This document shows, one piece after another, positions 3,363 through 57,305 of a DNA stretch of 64,000 nt. Within the stretch, counting starts at the first letter, position 1; the number at the start of each line of letters is the position of its first letter. Source of the DNA: Candidatus Shapirobacteria bacterium GW2011_GWF2_37_20. Its GTDB lineage: Bacteria; Patescibacteriota; Microgenomatia; UBA12405. A program made the position numbers and the translations under genes. The DNA is taken from positions 12,897 through 76,896 of the forward strand of contig LBTB01000004.1 of NCBI GenBank assembly GCA_000989305.1, written 5' to 3'. Below the pieces are notes generated by a model. It was not told the DNA's origin. It worked only from the letters and a program-made list of their open reading frames with translations, and ran no database searches.

Positions 3363-4574
3363 TTAACGGTCTTTTATGGTGACTGAAAAAAGGTTTTCTG
3401 GATTGTTCTTGGAAGTAGAGATGGAGATGATAAGACGATAACCATCCGGAGTGGGAAGAAGAATTTTTGGGGGAAGGTATTCAGTTGAGTAAACACTTTG
3501 GTAATTGGTGTGGTCGTATTCAACAACACCAATACTTTTGTCCTGAATGAAAACCAAATTATTAGAGTAGGGAATCCAGGATATTTGACTTATGGCGGTG
3601 TTACCAATAAGAAAGTTGGTATCATCTTTGAAATCATAAATGTAGTAGGAGTCTTTTTGAAGAGTGCGTTGTTGAGCTTGAGTGCTTTGGGTGGGAGGAG
3701 GAGTGATAAAGCGCTCAGAAAGCGTGGCACTTTCAGAGGCCTGGTACAAGATTTTGTCTTCGGAAGTGTTAAAAGCTAATACTGTTGAGTCAGTGGCAAT
3801 AACTGATTTAAGTTCGAGGGGGAGTTTTTCTAATTTGTTTTGAATAGTCTGTGATTGAATGTTTTGCCAATCTTTTTTTATTTGGGGTAGACGGGAGGAA
3901 ATATCAAACAGATTTTTTGAATCAAGAGTCTGGTCAAGAGAAATAAGATAGACATTGGGGTTGGTTTTCGAGGTGGCGAGAATTTGTTTGGAGTTGGGAG
4001 AGAATTCAAAGGAATATTTTGACCAATCAAGATAGGGGAGGTTGGGAGATAAAAATCTTTGAGTATTTTTACTCATAAGTAGAGGCAATTCAGTCAGTTC
4101 TAACAAATATAGCCCGTTTTCTTTGCTGGTGGCTGAAGTAGAAGCAACGGCATATATAATTTTTGTGGAATCAGGACTAACAACTGGATTGATAATTTTG
4201 CCTTGAGTAATTGGTTTTAAATCAAATGAGGAGCGAAATAGTTGAGCATCGGCCTGATAAACGAGTTCTGGCTTTATTTCGATATTTTTTTTCCAAGCAT
4301 AATAGCCATCTTTACTGATTTTTATTTGATAATTTCCAGGATTGAGGTTGAGGGTGTCGTCGGTGGCGGTGACTAATAGGTCGTCGACATATACACTGGC
4401 AGATTTTGGTTTAGAGGTAGCCGAGAGTAGGCCGGTAACCTTGAGCTTGAAACCATTGTTTGGGTCCAGGCGGTAACCTCTGGCAAAAATTGAAATAAAG
4501 AGGGTGGCACTGATGACAATGGAGGCCACCGAAAGAATTATTAGGAGACTTTTTCGGTTAGAATTTGAATGCAT
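3363..4574 (-). CDS. Membrane-anchored PEGA-domain / TolB-like beta-propeller protein
   Basis: N-terminal TM helix. PEGA-like segment YQIKISKDGYYAWKKNIEIKP. Repeated SPDS/SPNS propeller-like motifs. Confidence 0.6.
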   Translation of the reverse strand: MHSNSNRKSLLIILSVASIVISATLFISIFARGYRLDPNNGFKLKVTGLLSATSKPKSASVYVDDLLVTATDDTLNLNPGNYQIKISKDGYYAWKKNIEIKPELVYQADAQLFRSSFDLKPITQGKIINPVVSPDSTKIIYAVASTSATSKENGLYLLELTELPLLMSKNTQRFLSPNLPYLDWSKYSFEFSPNSKQILATSKTNPNVYLISLDQTLDSKNLFDISSRLPQIKKDWQNIQSQTIQNKLEKLPLELKSVIATDSTVLAFNTSEDKILYQASESATLSERFITPPPTQSTQAQQRTLQKDSYYIYDFKDDTNFLIGNTAISQISWIPYSNNLVFIQDKSIGVVEYDHTNYQSVYSTEYLPPKILLPTPDGYRLIISISTSKNNPENLFSVTIKDR

Positions 4575-4593: not shown

Positions 4594-5595
4594 ATGAGCT
4601 GGATAAGAAAGTTGGCAATAGATTTGGGGACTTCAAATTGTACTATTTGGGGCGAAAATGAAGGAATATTGTTAACTGAACCATCGGTAGTGGCAATTGA
4701 GGCTGAGGGTGGAAAGGTGCTGGCGGCCGGGAGTGAGGCGAAAAAAATGGAAGGAAAAACACCTGATTATATTGAGATTATTAAACCGATAGAATTTGGA
4801 GCGGTAGTGAACTATGAAGCGGCGGTGGGGATGCTAAGGTGGTTTTTAAGAGAAGTGATGGGTTCGGCGTGGTTGTTGGGGCCGGAAGTAATGGTGACGG
4901 TGGCGTCGGGATTGACCCAAGTTGAACAAAGAGCGGTGTTAGATGCGGTGTTGGAGGCTGGCGCAAGAAAAGTCTATTTAATTGATAGTCCGTTGGCGGC
5001 GGCAATTGGGGCAAAAATACCGATTTCAGAGCCATTTGGAAATATGGTGGTGAATATGGGGGGGGGAATAATTGAGGCGGCCGTGGTGGCTTCAGGAGGG
5101 GTGGTGGCTAGTAAATGTTTTCGTAGTGGAGGAAGTAGGTTAGATGAGTCACTTGAGGAATATTTAAAAAGAAAATATAGTTTAGCGGTGGGTGATCAGA
5201 CTGTAGAGCTGGTTAAGATTAAGCTGGGAACCGCAGTAAAGTTAAAAAAAACAGAAACGCTATCTATTAGTGGTCGGGATCTGGTTTATGGTTTACCAAA
5301 GAGCCTAGAATTAAACTCTGATGAAATATTTGAGGTAATCAGACCAATGCTTGACGAGGTGATACTGGTGGTGAGAGAGACACTGCAAGTGACACCTCCT
5401 GAATTAGTGGCGGATATTGCCGACAGGGGGATTGTATTAGTGGGGGCTGCATCAAAATTAAGAAACCTAGCATTGTTGTTAACGAGGGAAATTGGTGTAT
5501 CAGTACATCTGTCAATTGACTCGGAAACTTGTGTTATTAAGGGAGCAGGAATGGCAATGGAGAATTTGGAAACGTATCGTAAATCGGTAAGGTGA
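4594..5595 (+). CDS. mreB: Rod-shape determining actin homologue MreB
   Basis: IDLGTSNC phosphate-1 motif followed by EPSVVA. Full-length actin-fold ATPase. Start trimmed to the Met immediately before IDLGT. Confidence 0.85.
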   Translation: MSWIRKLAIDLGTSNCTIWGENEGILLTEPSVVAIEAEGGKVLAAGSEAKKMEGKTPDYIEIIKPIEFGAVVNYEAAVGMLRWFLREVMGSAWLLGPEVMVTVASGLTQVEQRAVLDAVLEAGARKVYLIDSPLAAAIGAKIPISEPFGNMVVNMGGGIIEAAVVASGGVVASKCFRSGGSRLDESLEEYLKRKYSLAVGDQTVELVKIKLGTAVKLKKTETLSISGRDLVYGLPKSLELNSDEIFEVIRPMLDEVILVVRETLQVTPPELVADIADRGIVLVGAASKLRNLALLLTREIGVSVHLSIDSETCVIKGAGMAMENLETYRKSVR

Positions 5596-7660: not shown

Positions 7661-7788
7661 GCCTAATTATATATTAAATATATTATTTATAATAAAAAGG
7701 CTTATATATATAATATATATTGTTATTTTGTGGATAAGTGGGTAAATTGTTTTGTGGCTTATAATATTTAATAGGGTAAAATGAACTA

Positions 7789-19686: not shown

Positions 19687-20553
19687 ATGGCAAAGCTAAG
19701 AGTGGGAGTGTTGATGGGAGGGGAAAGTAGCGAAAGGGAAGTGTCGCTGATGACGGGGCTAGAGATGATGAAAAATTTGGATAGGGGAAAATATGAAATT
19801 GAGGCGATTGAATTGCCAAAAGATTTAAGAAAGATTGATGGGAAAATAGACGTGGCTTTAATAGCATTGCACGGTAAGGGCGGAGAGGATGGAGTGATTC
19901 AGGGATATTTGGAAAGTTTTGGAATTAAATATACCGGCTGTGGGGTGTTGGCGTCAGCCGTGGGAATGGATAAAAAAATATTTAGGGAAGTAATGATGGC
20001 CAACAAATTACCAATACCGAGATTGGTAACACGGGCTCCTTGTGTGGTAAAGCCCAGTAATGGCGGCTCGAGTGTGGGAGTGTCGATTGTGAAAAAGGAT
20101 GGTGAAATGGAAAACGCTATAGCTAAGGCTAGAAAATATGATGATGAAATAATAATTGAAGAATATTTGAAAGGGACAGAAGTGTCGTGTGGGATTTTGG
20201 GGAATGAAGTTTTGCCGGTAATTGAAATAGTGCCAAAAAATGAGTTTTTTGATTATGAATCAAAATATACTGAAAGCGGAGCAGAGGAGATTTGTCCGGC
20301 GCGGATTAGTAAAAAACTTAGTGACAGAGTACAAAAACTGTCAACAAAAGTTTTTAAGGTAATAAAAGGGAGGGGCTATGCCAGGATTGACTTTATTATA
20401 AAAAATAATAAGCCATATATTTTAGAAATAAATACCTTACCAGGAATGACAGCGGTGTCGTTGTTACCAAAAGAGGCGTTGGTAGTGGGAATAAGTTATT
20501 CCCAGCTTTTGGATAAAATAATTGAGTTGGCACTAAAAAAGCCCCTAGAATAG
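19687..20553 (+). CDS. ddl: D-alanine--D-alanine ligase
   Basis: N-terminal VGVLMGGESSEREVSL, followed by an ATP-grasp domain. Confidence 0.9.
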   Translation: MAKLRVGVLMGGESSEREVSLMTGLEMMKNLDRGKYEIEAIELPKDLRKIDGKIDVALIALHGKGGEDGVIQGYLESFGIKYTGCGVLASAVGMDKKIFREVMMANKLPIPRLVTRAPCVVKPSNGGSSVGVSIVKKDGEMENAIAKARKYDDEIIIEEYLKGTEVSCGILGNEVLPVIEIVPKNEFFDYESKYTESGAEEICPARISKKLSDRVQKLSTKVFKVIKGRGYARIDFIIKNNKPYILEINTLPGMTAVSLLPKEALVVGISYSQLLDKIIELALKKPLE

Positions 20554-20577
20554 GGGCTTTTTGAAATTATATCAGAA

Positions 20578-31310: not shown

Positions 31311-32459
31311 ATGGACAAAATAATGGATTTGATTGCACAAGAAGAAAAATATCAAAATGAAACAATTAGGTTGATTCCAAGTGAAAATTTTACTTCGGAA
31401 AATGTTAAAAAAGCCTTGGCTTCGGATTTAACAAATAAATATGCAGAAGGATATCCCGGGAAAAGGTATTATCAGGGAAATAAAATTGTGGATGAAATTG
31501 AAAATTTAGCAATTGAAAGAGGTAAAAAATTACTGGGAGTAGAACATTTGAATGTACAAGCATATTCGGGAAGTCCGGCTAATAGTGCGGTACTGATGGC
31601 ACTGGTAGAGCCGGGAGAAAAGATTTGCGGCATGAAATTAAATGCGGGTGGACATTTGACTCACGGTCATCCAAAAATTACATTTTCCGGAAAATTTTTT
31701 AATTCAGTGCAATATGACGTGGACGTGGAAGGGAGGATTGATTATGAAAAGTTGAGAGAACTTGTTGTGGCCGAAAAACCAAAATTGATTTTTGCAGGAA
31801 CAACGGCTTACCCATGGATTCTTGATTGGGAAAAATTTGCGAAGGTTGCTGATGAGGTGGGGGCATGGTTAGTGGCTGATATTTCTCATATCGCGGGCTT
31901 AATTGTGGGGGGGGTACATCCAAGTCCGGTACCTTATGTTCATATTGTGACTTCAACAACTCACAAGAGTCTAAGGGGGCCACGAGGGGCCATAATCGGA
32001 GTGACAAAAAAGGGCTTAGATAGAGATATAGATTTGGCTAAGAAAATTGATAGAGCGGTGTTTCCCGGTTTACAGGGCGGACCACATATTAATAGTATTG
32101 CGGCAATGGCAGTGGCTTTTGAAGAGGCAAGTGGTGAAGATTTTAAAAAATATGCTGAGCAAATAGTGAAGAATGCTAAGGTTTTGGCTGATACATTAAG
32201 AGAAGGTGGTTTGAAAGTTTTCGGAACGGAGAATCATTTGATGGTGGTGGACGTTGGTTTGGAGAGGGGGAAAGAAGTAGCGGTGGAATTAGAGGAAGCG
32301 GGAATTATTGTCAATGCCAATACAATTCCCCACGACATGGGTAGTCCGTTTAAACCATCAGGAATCAGAATGGGAACACCGGCGATGACGACTAAGGGTT
32401 ACGTGGAGGCTGATTTTGTGGCTTTAGGAGTAAAAATAGCGGATATAGTAAAAAGATAA
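31311..32459 (+). CDS. glyA: Serine hydroxymethyltransferase
   Basis: LIPSENFTS, YAEGYPGKRYY and the PLP-lysine motif TSTTHKSLRGPRG. Confidence 0.9.
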   Translation: MDKIMDLIAQEEKYQNETIRLIPSENFTSENVKKALASDLTNKYAEGYPGKRYYQGNKIVDEIENLAIERGKKLLGVEHLNVQAYSGSPANSAVLMALVEPGEKICGMKLNAGGHLTHGHPKITFSGKFFNSVQYDVDVEGRIDYEKLRELVVAEKPKLIFAGTTAYPWILDWEKFAKVADEVGAWLVADISHIAGLIVGGVHPSPVPYVHIVTSTTHKSLRGPRGAIIGVTKKGLDRDIDLAKKIDRAVFPGLQGGPHINSIAAMAVAFEEASGEDFKKYAEQIVKNAKVLADTLREGGLKVFGTENHLMVVDVGLERGKEVAVELEEAGIIVNANTIPHDMGSPFKPSGIRMGTPAMTTKGYVEADFVALGVKIADIVKR

Positions 32460-35034
32460 AACCAAAGAACTCTAAAAGTTGAGGCCAAAAAAGAATATAG
32501 ATGTTATCGTTTTGGATATTTTCAAGGTTCCAGCCATTGGCCCAATTGTTGACTTGATAGTGGTCCAAGATATTAATCTTATAGTGGTTGAAATTAACAG
32601 CAATCCAGCTTGAGTCGTAGCTTTGAGGGAGTATTAGTGAAGAAGCAGGTGAGGTTGGGTATGCTTTGTAATAGAAAATATTAGAAATTGGATAAAGATA
32701 TTGTCGGGAAAGAGGGGGGTAGGAATCCTTTTGATTTAAAGGAAAAGGATATAGGGTGATTTGGTCAATGTAATTTAGGTTTGAGGTTGAGAATGAGGTG
32801 TTATCAAAAATAAAATTTAAACCGTAATCAAAGTTGTCTGATTGGCGAGCGGGAATAAAAAACCAACTGGTGGCGGGGTTGGGGAAAATAGGTAACAAGG
32901 TTTGAAAATATTTATTTTGAGAGTTTTCAGAAACAGCACTTATCTTTAAAGGAAGGCCGGAATAATGTCGGGAAGTTATTTTGACTAGGTAATTTTGAGA
33001 AAGACTGGCGTTGGGAAAGTTGTAGGCGAAAGTCGGTTGACTGATATCGGAATGAGTAGAATTTTTATTGGCAGGATCATTGTTTATTAAAGAAAAGGAA
33101 GAGGGGGAAAAGGGTAGCTCAGATTGAAGACGGTTGGTAAAAAGATTTTGGAAAGTGGAGGGATAATTTTTATCAGTAACATAGTCACCAAGAAGCTGAT
33201 AGTTTTGGTCAATCAGAGCAAAATTAAATTTGGAGGCGGAAGGTAAATCGGAGGTTAGATATATCCTGGTGGGGGAGGATGTCTGATAGACAAAAATGTT
33301 TTTGGTTTTCTTAATTAATTTAAGAGAGGGTATGGAATCAAGCAGTTCTTTGGTGGGACGGGAAAGTTTGGCATAAATTTTGTCATCGGGGTAATAAATA
33401 TTGTTATCAAAAATGATGTATTGAATAGAATATTTGGAAAAGATATTCTCTAAAAGAATCGGATTTTTGCTTTGGATGGCGTGACTTAACTCCCAATAGT
33501 ATTGTTCATTTTCTAGATTCCAAGCATCAAAGGCCCGATCGAGAATGGGATTTTGTAGGGCATACCAAAGGAAACCAGAGCCACTGACACCCCACTTATA
33601 GTTAGTCCAACCCCAAAAGGAGCCCTGAGGCAGATTGGCGATGCGACCGGTGTGGTTTTGGGTATTAAAAAAGTTAAAAATTTCAAAATATTCGGAGGGG
33701 ATTTTTTGACGGATATCGGGAGAAAAATAATTGCCTTTAAAAGCCGGAAAGGAAAAGAAAAAGAGGGAGAGAAAAACTAAGAAACTGGATAAATTGGAAG
33801 TAATTAGGGAATATTTTATTTGACGAAGAAAGTTGATTAAAGAACGGAGACCGAAAGCCAATAAGAGAGAAAAGGTAAAAGAGGCGGGAACTAAAAATTT
33901 GGTCCACGGCGAACGAAAGATCTGATTAATTAAAGGAAGGGTGCGAAGGAGAGAATTAAATTCTTTAAATGGGCCGAGATTAGAGAGAAGGGCAACGCAA
34001 GAAAGGAGAAAAAAGAGGAGAAGTGAAGTGGAAAATAAATTAAGTTTTTTTGGACGGGAAAGAAGATAAATTAGACCAAGAATAATAAAAAAAGAGATAA
34101 AGTAGCCACAGATTAGAAGATATTGGTTAGAAAAATGAGTTGTCCAGGGGGCCATAAGCCGTTGCCCGTTACTGGAAAAATCGTAATAATAACCCCGAAG
34201 AAGAAGAAAGTCAGAAAGATTGCCACGGGATTGATTGCGGGCAAAAGTTTCATCGTTACTCATGAAATTACCGATGCCGGCTGTTGGGTTTTGAAGATTA
34301 TTTTTTAAGAAATAGAGCTGGGGAAAAAGCCAAAAAGAATTGATTAAAAAAAGTAAAAATAAAAAGAGGGAATAAGATTTTAGGGAAGATGTTTTTCGAT
34401 GAACGACAAAATGAGAGACAAAAATTAGAAAAACACAAATTAAATAAACAACAAAAATAGTTTGAACATAGAAGGAGGGAATGGCCAAAAGATTAATAAG
34501 AATTAGTTTTTTTAGATTGGGTGAAATGGGGGAGTGGAGATATTTAAAAAGGTAAAAGATTAGCCAAGGGAAAAAGCCCCAGAAGGTAGAAAAGGGTTCA
34601 AAAGCAACCCAAAAATATTGGACGGAACCAAAGTTGAGAAGATAAAACAGGGCAGAGACAAAAGAGATTAAGGAAGAGAATTTATTTTTTATAAGTAAAT
34701 GAAAGATGCCAAAAGTACCTAAAAATAGCATGGCAAAATGCCAGAGATAGCGGATAAGGCTCGTCGGGAGAAATAGGGTAAAGGGCAGAATTATTAATTG
34801 ACGAATCAGGTCGGTAGCATGAGCCATGCCACCAACAAGACCAAGACCCTGGTATTGTTGCCAGACGGCAAAGAGAGAGCGTTTAAGGTTTAGCCAGATG
34901 TTTAATTCCGGCATTAAATTGTCCCAGCCGGTGAGAAAGGTACCTGGGGTGTAATTGTTAAGACAAAGGAGACAAAGAATTATGACCAAAAAAGATTCAA
35001 AGAGGTGACGTTTAATCCACAAAAAAGGGGCCAT
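32392..35034 (-). CDS. Large polytopic membrane protein (GT-C-like glycosyltransferase) with C-terminal soluble domain
   Basis: About 14 predicted TM helices in the N-terminal 500 aa, then a soluble region. Architecture resembles AftD/DUF3367-type GT-C enzymes. Confidence 0.55.
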   Translation of the reverse strand: MAPFLWIKRHLFESFLVIILCLLCLNNYTPGTFLTGWDNLMPELNIWLNLKRSLFAVWQQYQGLGLVGGMAHATDLIRQLIILPFTLFLPTSLIRYLWHFAMLFLGTFGIFHLLIKNKFSSLISFVSALFYLLNFGSVQYFWVAFEPFSTFWGFFPWLIFYLFKYLHSPISPNLKKLILINLLAIPSFYVQTIFVVYLICVFLIFVSHFVVHRKTSSLKSYSLFLFLLFLINSFWLFPQLYFLKNNLQNPTAGIGNFMSNDETFARNQSRGNLSDFLLLRGYYYDFSSNGQRLMAPWTTHFSNQYLLICGYFISFFIILGLIYLLSRPKKLNLFSTSLLLFFLLSCVALLSNLGPFKEFNSLLRTLPLINQIFRSPWTKFLVPASFTFSLLLAFGLRSLINFLRQIKYSLITSNLSSFLVFLSLFFFSFPAFKGNYFSPDIRQKIPSEYFEIFNFFNTQNHTGRIANLPQGSFWGWTNYKWGVSGSGFLWYALQNPILDRAFDAWNLENEQYYWELSHAIQSKNPILLENIFSKYSIQYIIFDNNIYYPDDKIYAKLSRPTKELLDSIPSLKLIKKTKNIFVYQTSSPTRIYLTSDLPSASKFNFALIDQNYQLLGDYVTDKNYPSTFQNLFTNRLQSELPFSPSSFSLINNDPANKNSTHSDISQPTFAYNFPNASLSQNYLVKITSRHYSGLPLKISAVSENSQNKYFQTLLPIFPNPATSWFFIPARQSDNFDYGLNFIFDNTSFSTSNLNYIDQITLYPFPLNQKDSYPPLSRQYLYPISNIFYYKAYPTSPASSLILPQSYDSSWIAVNFNHYKINILDHYQVNNWANGWNLENIQNDNIYILFWPQLLEFFGFIFLLYPLFLLLKPQNQPPRNP

Positions 35035-35041
35035 TGATTAA

Positions 35042-35947
35042 TTATACTTGGCTTCCGACAAAAGTGCCGATTTGGGATGCGGATTGATTTTTAGTAATTC
35101 CACGGATGAAATACCAAAGGTTATAGATAAGAGAAGAGGGAAGTATGGAAATAACGATAATTTCAGCCAGGTTGATAATAATGGCTTTGAGTGAGGGTTG
35201 AAAACCATTTTTTATGGCATTAAGACGTGACTGAAGAGTTAAATAGAAAGTTTTTTTAGGGTTCAGGTGAGAGAGAGAGCTTTTAATTTGACGATAAAAA
35301 TAGAGATAGTCTTTTAAATTAGCAAAGAGACCATATTGTGACAGTCTAAAATATAAGTCAACCTCCTCAGCACTGGTTTTGGAAGCAGAATACCAAGTAA
35401 AAGATTTAGGTAAAAGAGATCGATTAATCATCATATATCCTTGCTGAACAGGAATGGCCCAGAAAAGCATATCGTTGATGCCGGTTGAAGAAATCGGGAA
35501 AGATTTAAAACCAATGATCTGATCATTTTGATCAATAATGGTGCATTGAGCGCCAACAATGACGGTTTTAGGGTTTGATTTTAAATATTTTAATTGTTTT
35601 TCAAGTCTGTCTGATGTGGAAATATCGTCGGCGTCCATACGGGCAAGATATTTGCAGCGGGCGAAGGAAATGGCAATGTTGGAAGTGGTGGAAACGCCTA
35701 AATTAAGGCGGTTACGACAGGCACGAATACGCGGATCGCGACGGGCGAAGGATTTAATTATTTTCCAGGAAGAGTCGGTAGAGGCGTCATCAATAATGAT
35801 AAATTCAAAATTTTTTAAAGTTTGATTGAGGATGGACTCGATTGACTGAACAAGATAAGGAGCGGCATTAAAAACCGGCATGTATATACTCAAAACCGGT
35901 TTTTTAATTTTATAGTTGGTCATAGCATTTCGTCCTTTCGGACTCAT
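35042..35947 (-). CDS. GT2 family glycosyltransferase
   Basis: LSIYMPVFNAAPYL...IIIDDASTD and the DxD signature (RMDADDIS). Confidence 0.85.
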   Translation of the reverse strand: MSPKGRNAMTNYKIKKPVLSIYMPVFNAAPYLVQSIESILNQTLKNFEFIIIDDASTDSSWKIIKSFARRDPRIRACRNRLNLGVSTTSNIAISFARCKYLARMDADDISTSDRLEKQLKYLKSNPKTVIVGAQCTIIDQNDQIIGFKSFPISSTGINDMLFWAIPVQQGYMMINRSLLPKSFTWYSASKTSAEEVDLYFRLSQYGLFANLKDYLYFYRQIKSSLSHLNPKKTFYLTLQSRLNAIKNGFQPSLKAIIINLAEIIVISILPSSLIYNLWYFIRGITKNQSASQIGTFVGSQV

Positions 35948-36002
35948 CAGTATCGATACACATCGATAAATGCTAATCTCTTTCTTCTTTCTTTCCTTGG
36001 CT

Positions 36003-36046
36003 CCCGTGGGAACTGTTCGCCTTTGGGGCTACTGGGTTCCCACGGG
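36003..36046. repeat. 11-bp perfect inverted repeat (CCCGTGGGAAC / GTTCCCACGGG) with 22-nt loop
   Basis: Seen directly. Lies 3' of the GC-rich gene 36070-37029 on the minus strand. Possible terminator or recombination site. Confidence 0.6.
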
Positions 36047-36069
36047 GGATTAGAGGTTTGGGGTGGCCG

Positions 36070-37029
36070 TTACGGCAGAATCACGATTCGGATGTCAGGT
36101 CTGGTTGCTAAGTAATCAGCGACCACTTTGACGTCCTTCAGACGATCGGCAACAGCCAGAGCCAAAGGGCCATGAATGTCGAAATTGCCGACTTTGATTT
36201 GATCGATAATTCGACCAAGGTCTTTGTCGCGATGCGGTATATCGTACCAGAGTACGACTTCGCCGTTGCGAATCCGAATTTGCTGTTCACCCTTGAGGTT
36301 GAAAAGGACGCCACCATTAAATATGGTATTGTTCATTTCGAACCCGTGGGAGAAAACAACAGCTTCAGTGTCGCAAGCGTTAAATCGGACGTCCAACCAG
36401 GTGTTTTCAACTGTCTGCAGTTCCAAATCGGACAACTCTTCGTTGTAGGCTTTGTTAGGAACTAACACAGAACGGTTGGTGAATGTCACCCTTTTGCCGA
36501 TATCGTAGACCGATTCGGTTTCAAGTGACAGACCAGCGTTTTCCCAAGTGACTCCATTGTCTTTAGAAACCTCGATGGTTTCGCAGGCAACGATGGGTGT
36601 TTCAACAACGGGTGCTTCGGTGGCAACAACAGGTACTTCTGTAGTGACGACTTCCGTAGCCTTAGGGGCTTCGGTAGCAACTACGATGGGCACTTCAGTT
36701 GAGCTAACAACTGGAGTTTCTGTGGCTGTGGGTGCAGTGGGAACAGTCCAGGGATGCCATAATAGCATTCCAAGAATAAACAGTCCCAGTAAAACCCACG
36801 GTAACCAACCCAAATTCCGTGAGGAATTGGTTTTTTGCTCTTTTGCGCGGTTTTCTGCGGCGATGCGATTTGCACGTCGTGTTTCTGCGCCTTTTATTCC
36901 TGCATCGTGCCGTTTCTTTTTTTGCTCAGCTTCTGTAGCCATTGTAAATCTCCTTTGATTCTTGAATAAAAACTTTTTTCTCTGATTTTCATCGGGTTCT
37001 TTGCCTGAACGGCCTCCATGACACGGCAT
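36070..37029 (-). CDS. GC-rich type II membrane protein with T/E/V/P-rich repeat linker
   Basis: Basic cytoplasmic N-terminus, TM helix, TEVPIVVATEAP-type repeats, and an about 170-aa C-terminal domain. Gene GC is visibly higher than its neighbours. An alternative start at 36945 gives MATEAEQ. Confidence 0.6.
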   Translation of the reverse strand: MPCHGGRSGKEPDENQRKKFLFKNQRRFTMATEAEQKKKRHDAGIKGAETRRANRIAAENRAKEQKTNSSRNLGWLPWVLLGLFILGMLLWHPWTVPTAPTATETPVVSSTEVPIVVATEAPKATEVVTTEVPVVATEAPVVETPIVACETIEVSKDNGVTWENAGLSLETESVYDIGKRVTFTNRSVLVPNKAYNEELSDLELQTVENTWLDVRFNACDTEAVVFSHGFEMNNTIFNGGVLFNLKGEQQIRIRNGEVVLWYDIPHRDKDLGRIIDQIKVGNFDIHGPLALAVADRLKDVKVVADYLATRPDIRIVILP

Positions 37030-37495
37030 GGGTTCTTGAGTTCTTGGAAGACTTACCTCCTTGTAGGTGTCTTATAAATTCAAGTACTCGCGCTGGGCAT
37101 AAATAAATTATACCCAAGGTGAGTACCTGAATTTTGGAAAGATTGAAGAAAGAGATTGTTAAAGAACTCTGCTTTAGCTAATCTCAGACGCGGTGTTTGA
37201 GGTAACTGCGGCAGTATTTTGATGAAAGTTTCTAATCATCAAGGGAGAAACGGAGTAAGCATGACGAGGAGCCACCCTACCCCGAGAATCTCTCCCCTGA
37301 TGATTAATCGGGGGAAGCATTAAGCTTCTATTTGTTAAAGATTAATTAAAAGTTGACTATAACAATCAACAATTAATTGTAAGGAAGTGTATCAAGAATA
37401 TGCAATAATGTCAAGTTATAGGCTACTATTGGGGATAAGTTAGAGATAGGGTTAACTACAAAATCCGAGAATATTACGTATAAAATATTACGAAA

Positions 37496-38389
37496 TTATT
37501 TTAGATTATTTAGAAAATCTTTTAGGTCGGGAGCGATAGCTTCGTCGTTTAGGGTGACAGCAATATTGGCCTTAAGCCAGCGGAGAGGATCGCCGGTGGT
37601 CATCCAATCAGATTCTAAATCGGTGGCTTCGGTCAAGACAACATCGTTTGCGGCTAAAGTATTGACGGCATCGGCAAACCAAAGCTCATTATTTTTACCG
37701 GTGGATTGGGTGGTTAAAACTGGCCAAAGTTTGGCACTGTCAACAACAAAACGACCACCTTGGGCAAAGAAGGAGGGGGCTTGGTCAGCCGGTAATTTTT
37801 CGTACATTCCTGAGATACGATTTGGGTATTTGGGATCTTCTAGATATTTAGCTGAACCGTAACGGATGATTTCAATAGGACCGACATCTTTGACAGAGGC
37901 AATAACTGAGGGAGAATATTGATCAAAGGTCGAAATCATCTTTCGAAGGTAACGGCCACAATCTTTTTCGACAGTTAAATCATCACCAAACATATAGACA
38001 AAAGGGTCGTTGCCGATAAATGATTTGGCGGAGAGAAGTGGAGAGGCATTGCCGTAAGGGAGGTTGGTATCCTGAGGAATAAATTCTAAAGTTTTAAGTT
38101 TAGTCCAGATACTTTTTAGTGAATCGAGGTATTCGGTTTTATTGACGCTTTCTAAATATTTTTCTAAGTCGGAGTCGGGAGTGAAATAACTTTTAATAGT
38201 AGTTTCGCCCTCACGGTGAACAATACATAGATCAGTAATGCCGGCGGCGATGGCTTCTTCAACTAGATATTGGATATTGGGTTTGTTGATGATAGGGACG
38301 AGTTCTTTGGCATAAGCCTTAACAGTGGGAAGGAAACGGGTACCGCGGCCAGCGGCGGCGATAACGGCTTTGGTGACTTTAGTTGACAT
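37496..38389 (-). CDS. galU: UTP--glucose-1-phosphate uridylyltransferase
   Basis: AVIAAAGRGTRFLP...AKELVPI signature. Confidence 0.85.
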   Translation of the reverse strand: MSTKVTKAVIAAAGRGTRFLPTVKAYAKELVPIINKPNIQYLVEEAIAAGITDLCIVHREGETTIKSYFTPDSDLEKYLESVNKTEYLDSLKSIWTKLKTLEFIPQDTNLPYGNASPLLSAKSFIGNDPFVYMFGDDLTVEKDCGRYLRKMISTFDQYSPSVIASVKDVGPIEIIRYGSAKYLEDPKYPNRISGMYEKLPADQAPSFFAQGGRFVVDSAKLWPVLTTQSTGKNNELWFADAVNTLAANDVVLTEATDLESDWMTTGDPLRWLKANIAVTLNDEAIAPDLKDFLNNLK

Positions 38390-38477
38390 ATTAGCTACAT
38401 GATAACAAATTAAAAAAATGATTCAAATTAAAAAAGGAGGAAATATTTGATAGAATAGCGGGTACAGTTTTGTAATG

Positions 38478-38550
38478 GGCCCATAGCGTAGTTGGTAGCG
38501 CGTTCCCATGGCATGGGAAAGGTCAGGGGTTCGAGTCCCCTTGGGTCCAC
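38478..38550 (+). tRNA. tRNA-Ala (anticodon GGC)
   Basis: GGGCCCA acceptor with G3:U70. Anticodon loop ATGGCAT. T-loop TTCGAGT. Confidence 0.8.
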
Positions 38551-38605
38551 AGCTGACACTAATCCGTCTAATAGGCGGATTTTTTGATAAAATCAACTGT
38601 ATCCA

Positions 38606-38680
38606 AGGCCCATAGTGAAACGGTTATCACCAAGGTCTCCAAAACCTTTATTTGAGGTTCAAATCCTCATGGGCCTGCCA
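38606..38680 (+). tRNA. tRNA-Trp (anticodon CCA), CCA encoded
   Basis: AGGCCCA/TGGGCCT acceptor. Anticodon loop CTCCAAA. T-loop TTCAAAT. Confidence 0.8.
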
Positions 38681-38683
38681 ATA

Positions 38684-39277
38684 ATGATAAAAAAAGTATT
38701 GATATTGACTGGTTTGAATCAAGAAACGACTTTGCCGATTTTAAAAATGGCTGAGGGGAAATTGAGCAAGGATTTAGGAATTGAGACAAAAATATTTAAT
38801 TCAGGATGGGAAAGTAGGAAAAACTTTGGGGAAGTGGAAGAAAGATTGTCTAAAAAAATTGATGCAGTTGACGGAGAAGTGATATTGATAGGGATAAGTG
38901 CTGGAATGGTGGTGGCATTGGTGGCAAAAAATAAATATGGAGACAAAATACCAAAAATGATCTCTCTTTGTGGGTGGAGCCGACCAAAGATTAAATTAAA
39001 CCACGAAGAGAAGGAAAAATATAAAGCTTTAGCAAAACTAAATAATGTTTTTGGGGAAGGAGTAGAGAGGTATACTAAAATATATAAAGAAATTTTACCC
39101 AAAGATTGGAAAAAAATTATGGTTTTTTGGGCGGAGAATGATGAATTAATCCCCAAAAGTTGTTGTGTACATAAGGGAATGAAGCCGGTGGAATTGAAGA
39201 TTTTGGAACATGTCTCGGGGATAGTGATAGGGTTGACCAGAACAAAAGAAATGAGGGAATTTATCGAAAAAAAGTAA
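38684..39277 (+). CDS. Alpha/beta-hydrolase-fold protein, paralogue 1 (GISAG nucleophile elbow)
   Basis: GxSxG = GISAG. Start trimmed from the track ORF, which began inside tRNA-Trp. Confidence 0.55.
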   Translation: MIKKVLILTGLNQETTLPILKMAEGKLSKDLGIETKIFNSGWESRKNFGEVEERLSKKIDAVDGEVILIGISAGMVVALVAKNKYGDKIPKMISLCGWSRPKIKLNHEEKEKYKALAKLNNVFGEGVERYTKIYKEILPKDWKKIMVFWAENDELIPKSCCVHKGMKPVELKILEHVSGIVIGLTRTKEMREFIEKK

Positions 39278-39296: not shown

Positions 39297-39929
39297 ATGG
39301 ACAAAGAAGTGTTGGTTTTGACTGGTTTATCTCCGGAGATATCAACTCGATCTTCGAATGCAGTAGTTGGGGAAAAATTAACAAAAGCTTTGGGAATGGA
39401 AACAACAATTGTTGATCTTCATTGGAAAAAGAGTAAATACTTGGCCGAATTAGAAAATGTTTTGAATAAGAAAATTGAAGAGGCGAACGGGCAAGTGGTT
39501 TTAATGGGTATTGATATCGGAATGAGTCAAGCATTAATAGCCAGACAGAAATATGGGCAAATGAAAGTATCGGAACTTATTTCTGTATGTGGCTGGAATT
39601 GGCCGGAGCTTGGTTTAAGGAGTTTTGAAATACAAAAGTTAAATGATTTGCGGCAGATAAGTCCGATTTTTGGAAAAACAATTAGAAAATATACGGATTT
39701 GTTTGTTGGTAAATTTAATAAGTTTAACAGGGTTGTCAGCAGATTTGAGCCTTTTCATTGGAATAAAATACTGACCTTTGTGGCAAAGAACGATGAAATA
39801 GTTCCCAGAAATTGCAATGTGATTGGACCGGTAATGGAGGTGGTGGAAGTTAGGGGTAATCACGCTGGAGGAATTTTGAACGCTTTGAAGGAGACGGAGA
39901 AAATGAAGGAGTTTATTGAGAGGAGATAG
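39297..39929 (+). CDS. Alpha/beta-hydrolase-fold protein, paralogue 2 (nucleophile Ser replaced: GIDIG)
   Basis: Collinear with paralogue 1 (LTGL...GxxxG...CGW...NDE.VP). The serine position carries Asp. Confidence 0.55.
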   Translation: MDKEVLVLTGLSPEISTRSSNAVVGEKLTKALGMETTIVDLHWKKSKYLAELENVLNKKIEEANGQVVLMGIDIGMSQALIARQKYGQMKVSELISVCGWNWPELGLRSFEIQKLNDLRQISPIFGKTIRKYTDLFVGKFNKFNRVVSRFEPFHWNKILTFVAKNDEIVPRNCNVIGPVMEVVEVRGNHAGGILNALKETEKMKEFIERR

Positions 39930-39931
39930 TA

Positions 39932-40453
39932 TTAGAGAAGGGAGCGGATCTTTTTTTCGATTGATTCAGGGGTCTTTTTGGTGACGAAGGCAATTTCAGC
40001 AGAGAGATGGTAAACGATTTTATCGACTATATCCTGATAATTTTGGGAAAATTTTTCGGCCGTAGTGACTTTGTTGGCACAAAGTTGTTTTAAAACGTAG
40101 ACAGTTTTGTTGGGATCATTGAGATAGAGGATTTCTTTGATGGTTTTAAAGTCAAAAATGACATTTGGATCAACGGGTTTTTTAAGATATTTATAAATTT
40201 CTTTGACTTCCTGAGAGTTAATTAAGTAACGGAGGCCGCTCTTTTGAATATTATCGACCGGAATAGAAAAAGAGGCTGATTTTTGATCGGTATCGATGGG
40301 GCGATAAAGAAAATATTCGCAATCAATTCCCCGATAATCTTTTTTAATTTTTTTATCAAAAATTTGATAAATGTTTTCAAAATCAGTTAGATAATCGCCA
40401 ATAGAAAAACGAGTTTTTGGGATAGATGGTGTGGAATTTATAGATGTATTATA
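39932..40453 (-). CDS. 173-codon ORF with no ATG/GTG/TTG start (hypothetical protein, possible pseudogene or non-canonical start)
   Basis: Hand translation of the minus strand gives a continuous protein-like frame YNTSINST...IEKKIRSLL* between the in-frame TGA at 40454-56 and TAA at 39932-34. The ORF track omits it because no canonical start exists. Confidence 0.45.
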   Translation of the reverse strand, partial: YNTSINSTPSIPKTRFSIGDYLTDFENIYQIFDKKIKKDYRGIDCEYFLYRPIDTDQKSASFSIPVDNIQKSGLRYLINSQEVKEIYKYLKKPVDPNVIFDFKTIKEILYLNDPNKTVYVLKQLCANKVTTAEKFSQNYQDIVDKIVYHLSAEIAFVTKKTPESIEKKIRSLL

Positions 40454-46520: not shown

Positions 46521-46524
46521 GGCA

Positions 46525-46745
46525 GATTATAGCACTGTCTGATTATCGGTAGCTTTGGAGCGGATGGCGGGGGGTGATTGGTCTTCTTGGGAGATACTGT
46601 AGAGTTGCTCAGCAATGGTGGGTGAGGGGTGGCATGGACGACGAGGTTCAAAAGGGGGAATTAATCTGACGGGGGAAACGGTGTCAGCACAAAGGAGACA
46701 TTCCGTACTTCCGATTTGACACATAAATCAGTGTAGCATCAGAGA
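46525..46745 (+). ncRNA. GC-rich, G-run-rich island: candidate structured RNA of unknown family (strand uncertain). Alternative reading is a small Cys-containing minus-strand ORF.
   Basis: Local GC is far above the window background. G-runs GGCGGGGGG and GGTGGGTGAGGGGTGG. The overlapping track ORF 46527-46724(-) encodes a Pro/Arg/Ser-rich product, typical of spurious translation of RNA genes. Confidence 0.35.
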
Positions 46746-46746
46746 A

Positions 46747-46926
46747 TTATTTTAGTTTTGTTGACTCTTTGTGTTCGGTATTCTTTTTGCACCAATGACA
46801 ATATTTGTTGAATTTAAGTTTATCAGGGGTGTTGGTTTTGTTCTTTTCGGATAGATAATTTTGGGCACCACAAACGGAGCAACAAAGGGCGATTAAAATT
46901 CGAGGTGTTTTTTTAGATTTGGCCAT
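46747..46926 (-). CDS. rpmG: Ribosomal protein L33
   Basis: Hand translation gives MAKSKKTPRILIALCCSVCGAQNYLSEKNKTNTPDKLKFNKYCHWCKKNTEHKESTKLK, the L33 zinc-ribbon pattern. Length 59 aa, below the track length cutoff. Confidence 0.85.
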   Translation of the reverse strand: MAKSKKTPRILIALCCSVCGAQNYLSEKNKTNTPDKLKFNKYCHWCKKNTEHKESTKLK

Positions 46927-46961
46927 GGAGCTATTTTAATCGATGTAGCGGGAATTAGCAA

Positions 46962-56783: not shown

Positions 56784-56984
56784 ATGAGAAATTGTAGTCT
56801 ATGTGGTAAGGGAACTTCGGTTGGCCGCAACCGTTCCCATGCTCAAAATCGAACTTCCAGAACTTTTAAGGCAAATGTTCAAAAAGTAACTTTGACAGTA
56901 GGTGAAGAAAAAATCAGCGGGGTTTATTGTAGTAAATGCATAAAGAAGATGAAGGGTGAGATTAAAAAAACGGCACTTAAATAA
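56784..56984 (+). CDS. rpmB: Ribosomal protein L28
   Basis: MRNCSLCGKGTSVGRNRSHAQNRTSRTFKANVQKV matches the L28 pattern. The track ORF carries a spurious N-terminal extension. Confidence 0.85.
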   Translation: MRNCSLCGKGTSVGRNRSHAQNRTSRTFKANVQKVTLTVGEEKISGVYCSKCIKKMKGEIKKTALK

Positions 56985-57012
56985 GCACCGTTTCTTTAAT
57001 TGAAAAGAAAAA

Positions 57013-57132
57013 CTATTTTTTAGCTTTTTTTTTGACTTTCTTAGCTACTTTTTTCTTAACAACTTTTTTGGCTTTCTTAGCTACTTTTTTCTTAACAACT
57101 TTTTTGGCTTTTTTTGCTTTTTTTACGGGCAT
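57013..57132 (-). CDS. 39-aa lysine-rich peptide with exact 12-aa tandem repeat (KKAKKVVKKKVA x2)
   Basis: Hand translation gives MPVKKAKKAKKVVKKKVAKKAKKVVKKKVAKKVKKKAKK*. Strong RBS AAAGGAGGAACCAAC-ATG. Encoded by a 36-bp exact tandem duplication (57036-57071 and 57072-57107). Confidence 0.55.
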   Translation of the reverse strand: MPVKKAKKAKKVVKKKVAKKAKKVVKKKVAKKVKKKAKK

Positions 57133-57305
57133 GTTGGTTCCTCCTTTAATAAAATTAAAGAGGATTTGAAATTTTTTGTCAAACAAAAAACATCCTGATT
57201 TTCCGGTAAATAATTGATGTTTAAGATTAAAATATCATCAATTTTTGTAATTTTTTTTGAAAAATGTCAGTTAAATTATTCCTGTCTATCGGCAAAAAAT
57301 CAATA

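Follow-up and report, generated by a model that had tools for sequence, protein, structure and literature searches.

The window analysed here is a 64,000-nt stretch of Candidatus Shapirobacteria bacterium GW2011_GWF2_37_20 (contig LBTB01000004.1, positions 12,897 to 76,896), whose minus strand carries at 35923–37414 one conserved chromosomal expression module of a surface-protein/glycosylation operon of Microgenomates (Woesebacteria/Shapirobacteria type). The finding is a conserved RNA module that contains a previously unannotated hammerhead ribozyme, and the frame that it forms around the surface-protein gene is undescribed. An initial annotation of the same DNA had taken the region for a horizontally acquired, GC-rich membrane-protein gene with its own regulatory RNA, possibly a riboswitch or attenuator; it had overlooked the three parts that tell the most, namely the hammerhead at the edge of its interval, boxA and the long-range helix between leader and trailer. 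In the order of transcription, the module and the genes behind it consist of the following features (coordinates are those of the window).

37386–37414, minus strand: sigma-70-type promoter, with −35 TTGACA at 37414–37409, a 17-nt spacer, −10 TACACT at 37391–37386 and TG before the −10.
37369–37380, no strand assigned: perfect 12-bp palindrome ACAATTAATTGT at the predicted transcription start, a candidate operator.
37370–37352: hairpin GUUGAUUGUUAUAGUCAAC, after the palindrome.
36943–37379, minus strand: structured 5' untranslated region (5' UTR) of about 437 nt.
37233–37306, minus strand: P1-P2-P3 hairpin domain, which holds the leader stem reported earlier.
37219–37242, minus strand: alternative hairpin, UUGAUGA (37242–37236, part of the 3' strand of P1) with UCAUCAA (37225–37219).
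37183–37201, minus strand: boxB-like hairpin CUCAAAC-ACCGC-GUCUGAG, 15 nt upstream of boxA.
37157–37167, minus strand: boxA-like element GUUCUUUAACA, a candidate NusB/NusE (S10) antitermination site.
37136–37157, minus strand: leader strand of inverted repeat I2, AAUCUCUUUCUUC-AA-UCUUUCC, in full AAUCUCUUUCUUCAAUCUUUCC.
37076–37134, minus strand: long hairpin with 27-nt arms in the 5' UTR (inverted repeat I1).
36070–36942, minus strand: surface-protein coding sequence (hereafter the cargo gene), 290 aa, ATG at 36942, Shine-Dalgarno AAGGAG at 36955–36950.
36003–36046, minus strand: 3' hairpin with an 11-bp GC-rich stem, an inner GCC/GGC helix and an AGUA/GAA internal loop; no U-tract after it.
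35975–35996, minus strand: polypurine trailer strand, GGAAAGA-AA-GAAGAAAGAGAUU, in full GGAAAGAAAGAAGAAAGAGAUU, directly upstream of the hammerhead.
35923–35975, minus strand: type III hammerhead ribozyme with predicted cleavage between 35969 and 35968, identified from a sub-threshold match to Rfam Hammerhead_3 and from reading the sequence.
35042–35923, minus strand: glycosyltransferase family 2 (GT2) gene, 293 aa.
32392–35034, minus strand: polytopic membrane protein, 880 aa, the conserved third gene of the unit and syntenic in relatives.

Read from 35975 to 35923, the hammerhead begins with UAGCAU, which pairs with the terminal AUGCUA in an open stem III of 6 bp, followed by the single U at the cleavage site, stem I (UAUCGAU-GUGU-AUCGAUA, 7 bp with a GUGU loop), the core CUGAUGA (35950–35944), stem II (GUCC-GAAA-GGAC, 4 bp with a GAAA loop) and GAA (35931–35929). 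The core residues C3 U4 G5 A6 N7 G8 A9 and G12 A13 A14 are thus complete. The A15.1-U16.1 pair is formed by A35928 and U35970, and position 17 is U35969, which makes the cleavage triplet AUU, an NUH triplet; the triplets of relatives are GUC, UUC, GUA or GUU. The chance expectation for CUGAUGA-N12-GAAA is 0.07 per window.

Wherever both flanks of a related locus were available, a hammerhead was found at this position, and its core was kept in all these loci while the stems varied by compensated changes: stem III reads UAGCGU/ACGCUA, UAGAAUU/AAUUCUA, UAGGGU/ACCCUA or UAGAAGU/ACUUCUA, stem I GUCC/GGAC, AUCCGGUG/CACCGGAU or UAGGAAU/AUUCCUA, and stem II GCCCCGC/GCGGGGC, AUCC/GGAU or GUCU/AGAC. In an alignment of 12 sequences, 92.2% of the cells were paired, compared with 31–43% when the partners were slid. 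Counting the hammerhead stems together with the 3' hairpin, 18 of 31 pairs were changed on both sides (4 of 6 in stem III, 3 of 7 in stem I, 3 of 4 in stem II and, for helices 1 and 2 of the 3' hairpin, 8 of 14), and the covariation score of the alignment was reached by none of 500 shuffles.

Some variants stand apart. In L065 (minus strand, 4818–4880), L188 (minus strand, 3365–3425) and L132 (7050–7112) the near-universal A15.1-U16.1 pair is replaced by U15.1-A16.1, so that the core reads GAAUAC..., and the core of L035 reads CUGAAGA, changed at the variable position 7; both kinds may be slow or altered ribozymes. No second ribozyme, such as would make a circular RNA possible, was found in the leader. 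Our search of the literature for work linking hammerheads to the candidate phyla radiation (CPR), Microgenomates or Patescibacteria returned nothing relevant.

The ribozyme is interlocked with the gene that follows it. The first base of the GT2 start codon, A35923, is the last nucleotide of stem III, and stem II contains, in its loop and 3' strand, the Shine-Dalgarno-like AAGGA (35938–35934), which is replaced by GAGG or GGGG in relatives. Gene callers place the GT2 start at MTNYK in most relatives, whereas some calls extend the gene into the ribozyme; in the window, the mechanically derived open reading frame (ORF) starts at 35947, the AUG inside CUGAUGA. A scan of the minus strand between the cargo ORF and GT2 yielded no promoter-like or terminator-like site, so that co-transcription of the two genes fits. 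The 880-aa membrane protein matched no known family.

Directly upstream of the hammerhead, the trailer strand is complementary to the leader strand about 1.1 kb away. The two strands of inverted repeat I2 (22 nt, 91%) form a helix of 13 bp, an AA/AA internal loop and 7 bp, with a duplex energy of −30.1 kcal/mol compared with −12.0 ± 2.9 kcal/mol for a shuffled partner, and a similar gap was obtained in 22 loci. The polypurine trailer is near-invariant, and the helix is extended in a lineage-specific and complementary manner (GUGUGU/ACACAC in L009, CUUGUGU/ACACAAG in L065 and L132, UUCCCU/AGGGGAA in L021). Since the arms differ only by changes of the G·U type, with G·U pairs in L011, L021 and L154 and no A·C, pairing in RNA is favoured over a DNA repeat. 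All 20 pairs of the helix are present in the minimum free energy (MFE) fold of the whole 1465-nt transcript, and helix and hammerhead are compatible in a cofold, in which stem III abuts the helix. As in ribosomal RNA (rRNA) operons, long covarying complementarity flanks the cargo and the leader strand comes just after boxA; with an mRNA as the cargo, this likeness is one of analogy in design.

Between cargo gene and trailer lies the 3' hairpin, whose outer stem the initial annotation had described as a perfect 11-bp inverted repeat (36003–36013/36036–36046). The repeat is present and perfect, but taken alone it does not exceed chance, with 3 perfect 11-bp repeats with a loop of at most 60 nt in the window and 2.0 ± 1.7 in dinucleotide shuffles. 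It is stable as a hairpin (−27.3 kcal/mol, z = −3.7), with conservation and the covariation described above. On the RNA strand it is followed by AGCCAAGGAAAG, with no U-tract as expected of an intrinsic terminator, and it was not among the sites returned by a terminator scan of the region. By eye, its loop at 36014–36035 (minus strand; CCAGUA/GAACA with AGUA/GAA) resembles the loop-E or sarcin-ricin (bulged-G) motif, and this internal loop is kept in most relatives (CAGUAGCC...GGCGAAAAG).

The boxA-like element (GTTCTTTAACA, 37167–37157) belongs to the untranslated, promoter-proximal part of the transcript, some 215 nt downstream of its predicted start. It matches the consensus GYTCTTTAANA derived by Baniulyte et al. 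(PMC5725501) exactly and is the sole match in the window. Across 24 loci its core CUUUAACAAUCUCUUUCU shows no or almost no change (variants of the element are GTACTTTAACA, GCTCTTTAACA and GTACCTTAACA), and an invariant block GUUCUUUAACAAUCUCUUUCUUCAAUCUUUCC at 37167–37136 spans boxA and the leader strand. Ten conserved nucleotides immediately 5' of the leader strand are part of no covarying helix. No rRNA genes were found in the window or in any fetched locus. Upstream of boxA, the boxB-like hairpin was predicted by RNAalifold with compensatory changes in 4 of its 5 pairs.

The 9-mer GAGAUUAGC occurs twice on the minus strand, in the leader (37177–37185) and just before the hammerhead site (35972–35980). 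By pairing with AAUCUC, the leader copy can close a small hairpin whose loop holds boxA (−6.9 kcal/mol), and the trailer copy would displace this hairpin. We also considered the leader copy as an alternative hammerhead substrate and rejected it, the pairing being unfit and showing no covariation with stem III.

Transcription of the module is predicted to start near 37379. TTGACA-17-TACACT is the best promoter-like site of the region (10 of 12 matches) and unique in the window. The promoter and the adjoining upstream sequence CCTATAAC are near-invariant in most related loci, and the palindrome ACAATTAATTGT is identical or one base off in most loci that carry the promoter.

The start of the cargo gene had been placed at 37029. 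The ORF 36070–37029 exists on the minus strand, but its first 87 nt form a covarying hairpin in relatives and their codons are not conserved; together with AAGGAG 7 nt upstream of the ATG at 36942 and a database entry (P0001) identical to the 290-aa protein, this places the true start at 36942. The untranslated stretch therefore measures 553 nt (36943–37495), and it is among the longest in the window, not strictly the longest as had been stated. The description of the product as a membrane protein with TEVP-type repeats was confirmed: a basic N-terminal helix is followed by one transmembrane helix, a disordered linker rich in T, E, V, P and A, and a folded C-terminal domain of 172 aa. That domain, already noted as being of no known kind, matched no known family or fold.

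Homologues of the cargo protein numbered 27 among 5.8 billion clusters, all of them from metagenome or metagenome-assembled genome (MAG) contigs. The named ones belong to Candidatus Woesebacteria, and matches to the DNA patterns came from MAGs of Candidatus Shapirobacteria; pattern scans of genomes and metagenomes gave mostly chance matches, which were filtered. For synteny, we examined the contigs of ten homologues with 40–70% protein identity. Gene order was constant in all 11 fetched loci: a long non-coding gap (430–590 nt), the cargo gene, a short gap (110–240 nt), GT2 and a membrane protein of about 900 aa, usually with a GalU-type nucleotidyltransferase gene upstream of the cargo gene. 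Since a GalU-type enzyme is encoded on the upstream side and GT2 and a large polytopic membrane protein are encoded on the downstream side, the most economical reading would be that of a glycosylated surface protein encoded with its glycosylation genes. These ultra-small bacteria probably have their major surface glycoprotein locus here. The non-coding flanks of the module are more conserved than the protein, with long invariant runs in the alignment of the upstream gap at 40–70% protein identity. Moreover, one and the same frame of leader, trailer and hammerhead encloses unrelated C-terminal ectodomains (cargo ORFs of L032, L035, L061, L065, L160 and L188), and the cargo proteins of other loci have the shared anchor and linker or a lipoprotein signal.

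Near-identical flanks of this kind could act as recombination anchors by which cargo is swapped among strains. Contigs carrying the module are also filed in unrelated MAGs (L021, L032, L035 and L065 in Gammaproteobacteria, L039 in Methanoperedens), which probably reflects binning contamination of public assemblies.

Taken together, we favour the reading, with a probability of roughly 0.6, that the module combines rRNA-style antitermination with a subsequent ribozyme cleavage that parts the surface-protein mRNA from the glycosyltransferase mRNA. The strong promoter with its operator-like palindrome would start a transcript with a 437-nt folded leader, in which boxA would recruit factors of the NusB/S10 type as in rRNA operons, and RNA polymerase would then read through the long untranslated structured RNA and an operon of about 5 kb. 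When the trailer emerges about 1.1 kb later, it would pair with the leader strand and thereby enclose the surface-protein ORF in a loop, and the hammerhead, stacked on the leader-trailer helix, would cut after U35969. The upstream product would be a surface-protein mRNA whose 3' end, a 2',3'-cyclic phosphate, lies only 6 nt beyond the 22-nt duplex and the strong hairpin; this mRNA should resist 3' exonucleases because its end is so close to the duplex and to a hairpin of −27 kcal/mol. The downstream mRNA for GT2 and the membrane protein would start with a 5'-OH and a compact ribozyme that holds its own ribosome-binding site, which would shield GT2 translation from the variable gene upstream, and the lifetimes of the two mRNAs could differ. 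An insulating role fits since the ectodomain of the cargo varies among loci and the frame is constant.

Going further, CPR bacteria might have borrowed the whole plan of an rRNA operon for an mRNA, with a promoter, a boxA complex that holds the leader at the polymerase, leader-trailer closure, and a hammerhead in place of RNase III. The product would be a self-processed, helix-closed and long-lived mRNA of the main glycosylated surface protein, along with a natural insulator for the downstream glycosylation genes, the cargo being swappable among strains; we offer this wider proposal only tentatively.

Known systems resemble parts of this design. Processive antitermination in polysaccharide and surface operons is provided by ops/RfaH, EAR RNA and LoaP. 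These systems likewise involve a long operon of the surface-glycan type and a leader element that would make the polymerase termination-resistant, whereas the element here is a Nus-type boxA, and Rfam scans matched none of them. In synthetic insulators of the RiboJ type, a hammerhead just upstream of the ribosome-binding site cuts away the varying RNA in front of it, so that the 5' end is structured and defined; the hammerhead of the window, in contrast, is natural and conserved and has the ribosome-binding site inside the ribozyme. With the type III hammerheads of viroids or satellites, phages and bacteria (Rfam RF00008; Perreault et al. 2011, PMC3088659) it shares the core CUGAUGA...GAA, the open stem III, A15.1-U16.1 and H17, and like those of phages (PMC3088659) it lies between genes of a polycistronic transcript. 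It differs from the known ones in being chromosomal at one orthologous CPR site and not in a prophage, in scoring below the Rfam threshold, in being presumably stacked on a 22-nt long-range helix, and in having stems that hold the ribosome-binding site and the first start-codon base of the next gene.

The leader of rRNA operons, with boxB-boxA-boxC and a leader-trailer helix (PMC10250234), shares with the module the order of hairpin, boxA, 5' strand of the helix, cargo, trailer and adjacent cut, and boxA-bound Nus factors are thought to hold that leader at the polymerase until the trailer emerges (PMC10250234). Here, however, the cargo is a protein-coding gene and not 16S rRNA, a 22-nt duplex of a polypyrimidine and a polypurine strand makes up the helix, and the cut would be made by a ribozyme and not by RNase III. 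Outside rRNA operons, boxA has been described in suhB and other mRNAs (PMC5725501) and in CRISPR arrays (PMC7665894). As in the present case, a consensus boxA lies there in the 5' part of a non-rRNA transcript with a long untranslated portion, whereas those cases are from Proteobacteria, Bacteroidetes and Cyanobacteria and none is tied to a leader-trailer helix or a ribozyme.

If the proposed mechanism is true, the rRNA-style design of boxA and leader-trailer helix would have a first example serving a protein gene, and the ribozyme insulators of synthetic biology would have a precedent in nature. The roles of bacterial hammerheads are largely unknown and most copies lie in prophages, while the present one is chromosomal and sits at one orthologous site of an uncultured lineage; because it is physically bound up with the ribosome-binding site and start codon of the next gene and with a long-range helix, its function is directly testable. 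For annotation, the group is missed by the Rfam threshold and GT2 gene calls sometimes run into the ribozyme.

Several points weigh against the proposed mechanism. Anatomy, RNA covariation and synteny were observed, and what goes beyond the anatomy we infer from them. The match to Rfam Hammerhead_3 (35962–35922) scored 23.9 bits (E = 0.032), below the gathering threshold of 48.5, and at gathering level Rfam returned only tRNAs and no hammerhead in the window and 11 relatives; the model penalises short stems and loops such as these. The short loops of the hammerhead lack a recognised loop-loop contact, and its cleavage site is AUU instead of the fast GUC. Chance alone would give 0.59 boxA matches per window, so that the weight of this element comes from its conservation across loci. 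The conserved part of the leader-trailer helix is nearly invariant and most of its covariation resides in the distal extensions. Stacking of helix and hammerhead is not universal, since L032, L061 and L097 carry an insert between the two. Lastly, the mechanism does not explain the P1-P3 domain, and the helix could equally be a destabilising site for RNase III.

The insert of about 130 nt between trailer and hammerhead (L032, minus strand, 1807–2004; L097, minus strand, 1950–2152; L061, 2493–2654) comprises a hairpin GUCCUGAUGA...UCAUCAGGAC and a small hydrophobic ORF (e.g. MDRLIEFIMLILHCIFP), whose ribosome-binding site can pair with the downstream CAUUUUCAUCUCCAC.

In one alternative, the leader-trailer helix would be a substrate of RNase III, which would excise the ORF from the leader or destabilise the mRNA and not protect its 3' end. 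A duplex of 22 nt is about the minimal RNase III substrate, and the helix corresponds directly to the leader-trailer helices of rRNA, known targets of RNase III cleavage; the AA/AA internal loop, however, breaks the duplex into 13 and 7 bp, and a cut directly after the helix is already provided by the hammerhead. We regard processing by RNase III as possible and yet doubtful.

A second alternative is raised by the fold of the leader itself. The 5' UTR has an MFE of −140.6 kcal/mol, compared with −94.7 ± 5.8 for shuffles (z = −7.86). The stem reported earlier was recovered in it with 16 instead of 14 nt (37233–37248 with 37291–37306), and the A-C mismatch ascribed to it is seen on the plus strand only, being a G·U wobble in the minus-strand RNA. 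Repeats of this quality occurred twice in the window versus 0.13 times in shuffles, so that the stem is beyond chance. It constitutes P1 (37306–37291 with 37248–37233, 16 bp including one G·U), on which stands P2 (CGGGGUA at 37284–37278 with UACUCCG at 37257–37251), and a 12-nt loop GGGUGGCUCCUC at 37277–37266 is near-invariant. RNAalifold on 20 sequences recovered both P1 and P2, with 16 of 33 predicted pairs keeping their pairing although both sides had changed. G·U pairs are frequent and A·C almost absent, and the structure therefore belongs to the minus-strand RNA. The alternative hairpin excludes the outer half of P1; an equivalent hairpin was predicted in nearly all of 17 distinct relatives when segments were folded, the sequences differing, and both of the mutually exclusive pairings covary. 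Further downstream, the inner stem of the long hairpin (37134–37076) covaries as well (GGGUAU/AUGCCC, GAGAGU/GCUCUU, GGGAGU/ACUCCU), the hairpin being missing from some lineages, and it is followed by a conserved Shine-Dalgarno-like AAGGAGGU (37062–37055) with no start codon behind.

The claim of an own regulatory RNA thus held in that the leader is conserved and strongly structured with a covarying stem, but its class as riboswitch or attenuator is at most putative. The Rfam scan that had been suggested for 37030–37495 returned no riboswitch or attenuator family; when 35900–37600 was scanned by E-value, this part gave only miRNA-like hairpin noise at E ≤ 10. No U-tract after the alternative hairpin and no terminator-like site were found on the minus strand. 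Of the features that define these classes, mutually exclusive conserved structures are present, whereas an aptamer family or a terminator/antiterminator with a U-tract is not. A resemblance to a T-box seen by eye (GGGUGG...ACCGCG) was dropped, there being no Rfam T-box match, and a pairing of GAGUUCUU with AAGAACUC in the MFE fold was rejected since a U-to-A change in seven relatives is uncompensated.

The P1-P2-P3 domain and the alternative hairpin could be a ligand- or protein-sensing switch that controls the surface-protein gene, as the two exclusive, covarying pairings and the near-invariant loop would suggest. Two segments, the CUCCUC loop and the UCUCC strand, resemble an anti-Shine-Dalgarno sequence, and either the conserved AAGGAGG or the real ribosome-binding site could be their pairing partner. 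Yet no known family matches, the alternative hairpin has no terminator U-tract after it, about 290 nt separate the domain from the start codon, the 16-bp P1 is far more stable than the 7-bp alternative, and the gene content suggests no candidate ligand. A switch seems rather improbable to us, but it is compatible with antitermination followed by ribozyme cleavage, and would then make sensing the key function of the leader.

The claim of horizontal acquisition, which had invoked an island bringing its own riboswitch or attenuator, fared worse. The compositional observation behind it was borne out: compared with the 57 other long ORFs of the window, the cargo gene has the highest GC content (0.481 versus a mean of 0.385, z = 3.8), the highest GC content at third codon positions (GC3; 0.464, z = 2.65) and the lowest strand-corrected GC3 skew (z = −2.7). 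Roughly 1 kb upstream there are tRNA genes, and the different ectodomains inside near-identical frames would permit an older exchange among relatives by recombination in the flanks. However, orthologues occupy the same locus in all relatives examined, a result that the initial annotation itself had named as refuting, and they exceed their own flanks in GC content in all 10 loci measured (0.44–0.52 versus 0.36–0.42); the composition is therefore a trait of the gene family. A highly expressed gene would fit the high GC1 and GC3, the abundance of C-ending codons and the reduced strand skew, which are common to the orthologues. Apart from atypical composition, no mark of a genomic island was found, as presence is not patchy and no integrase, transposase or other mobility genes, flanking direct repeats or insertion scars were seen at the cargo gene, and there was neither a match, beyond chance ones, in the viral collection scanned nor an Rfam riboswitch match. 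Recent transfer is already refuted by the presence of the gene in relatives, and we consider an acquired island very unlikely.

The hammerhead might also be an inert remnant of a phage or mobile element with no role in the operon. Most described bacterial hammerheads are found in prophage contexts (PMC3088659), the AUU triplet is suboptimal, and the U15.1-A16.1 variant occurs in some relatives. Against this, the catalytic core is intact at every locus, all three stems show compensatory changes, the position is fixed relative to trailer and GT2 start, and scans of the viral collection with both conserved patterns gave only chance matches, so that we give this explanation very little credence. 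That the 22-bp inverted repeats are DNA recombination or inversion sites of a phase-variable or exchangeable surface-protein cassette is scarcely credible, for although they flank exactly one surface-protein gene with an ectodomain variable among strains, the orientation is identical in all 24 loci, no recombinase gene lies nearby, the arms differ by G·U-type changes that are tolerated in RNA and not favoured in DNA repeats, and a role in RNA fits the position of the arms, the 5' one overlapping boxA and the 3' one directly adjoining hammerhead stem III.

Elsewhere in the window, other long stretches without an ORF of 70–100 aa or more lie at 39930–40443, 46521–46961 and 56831–57305. Genes for tRNA-Ala(GGC) and tRNA-Trp(CCA) are located at 38477–38680, just upstream of the GalU-type gene. 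The mechanically derived ORF 38615–39277 overlaps tRNA-Trp, and its start must therefore be further in; together with ORF 39297–39929 it appears to encode two similar proteins of about 210 aa without a Pfam family, and similar pairs recur in relatives. A strong inverted repeat AAAAAGCCCCT/AGGGGCTTTTT at 20536–20562, between convergent genes at about 20550, resembles a bidirectional terminator, and an AT-only inverted repeat of 16 nt is present at 7668–7719. Over the whole window (1–64000) the GC skew is extreme and of one sign (about +0.3 to +0.5 per 500 nt) with no switch point, and the plus-strand GC3 skew averages 0.56 for genes of either orientation, which is a very strong replication-strand asymmetry.

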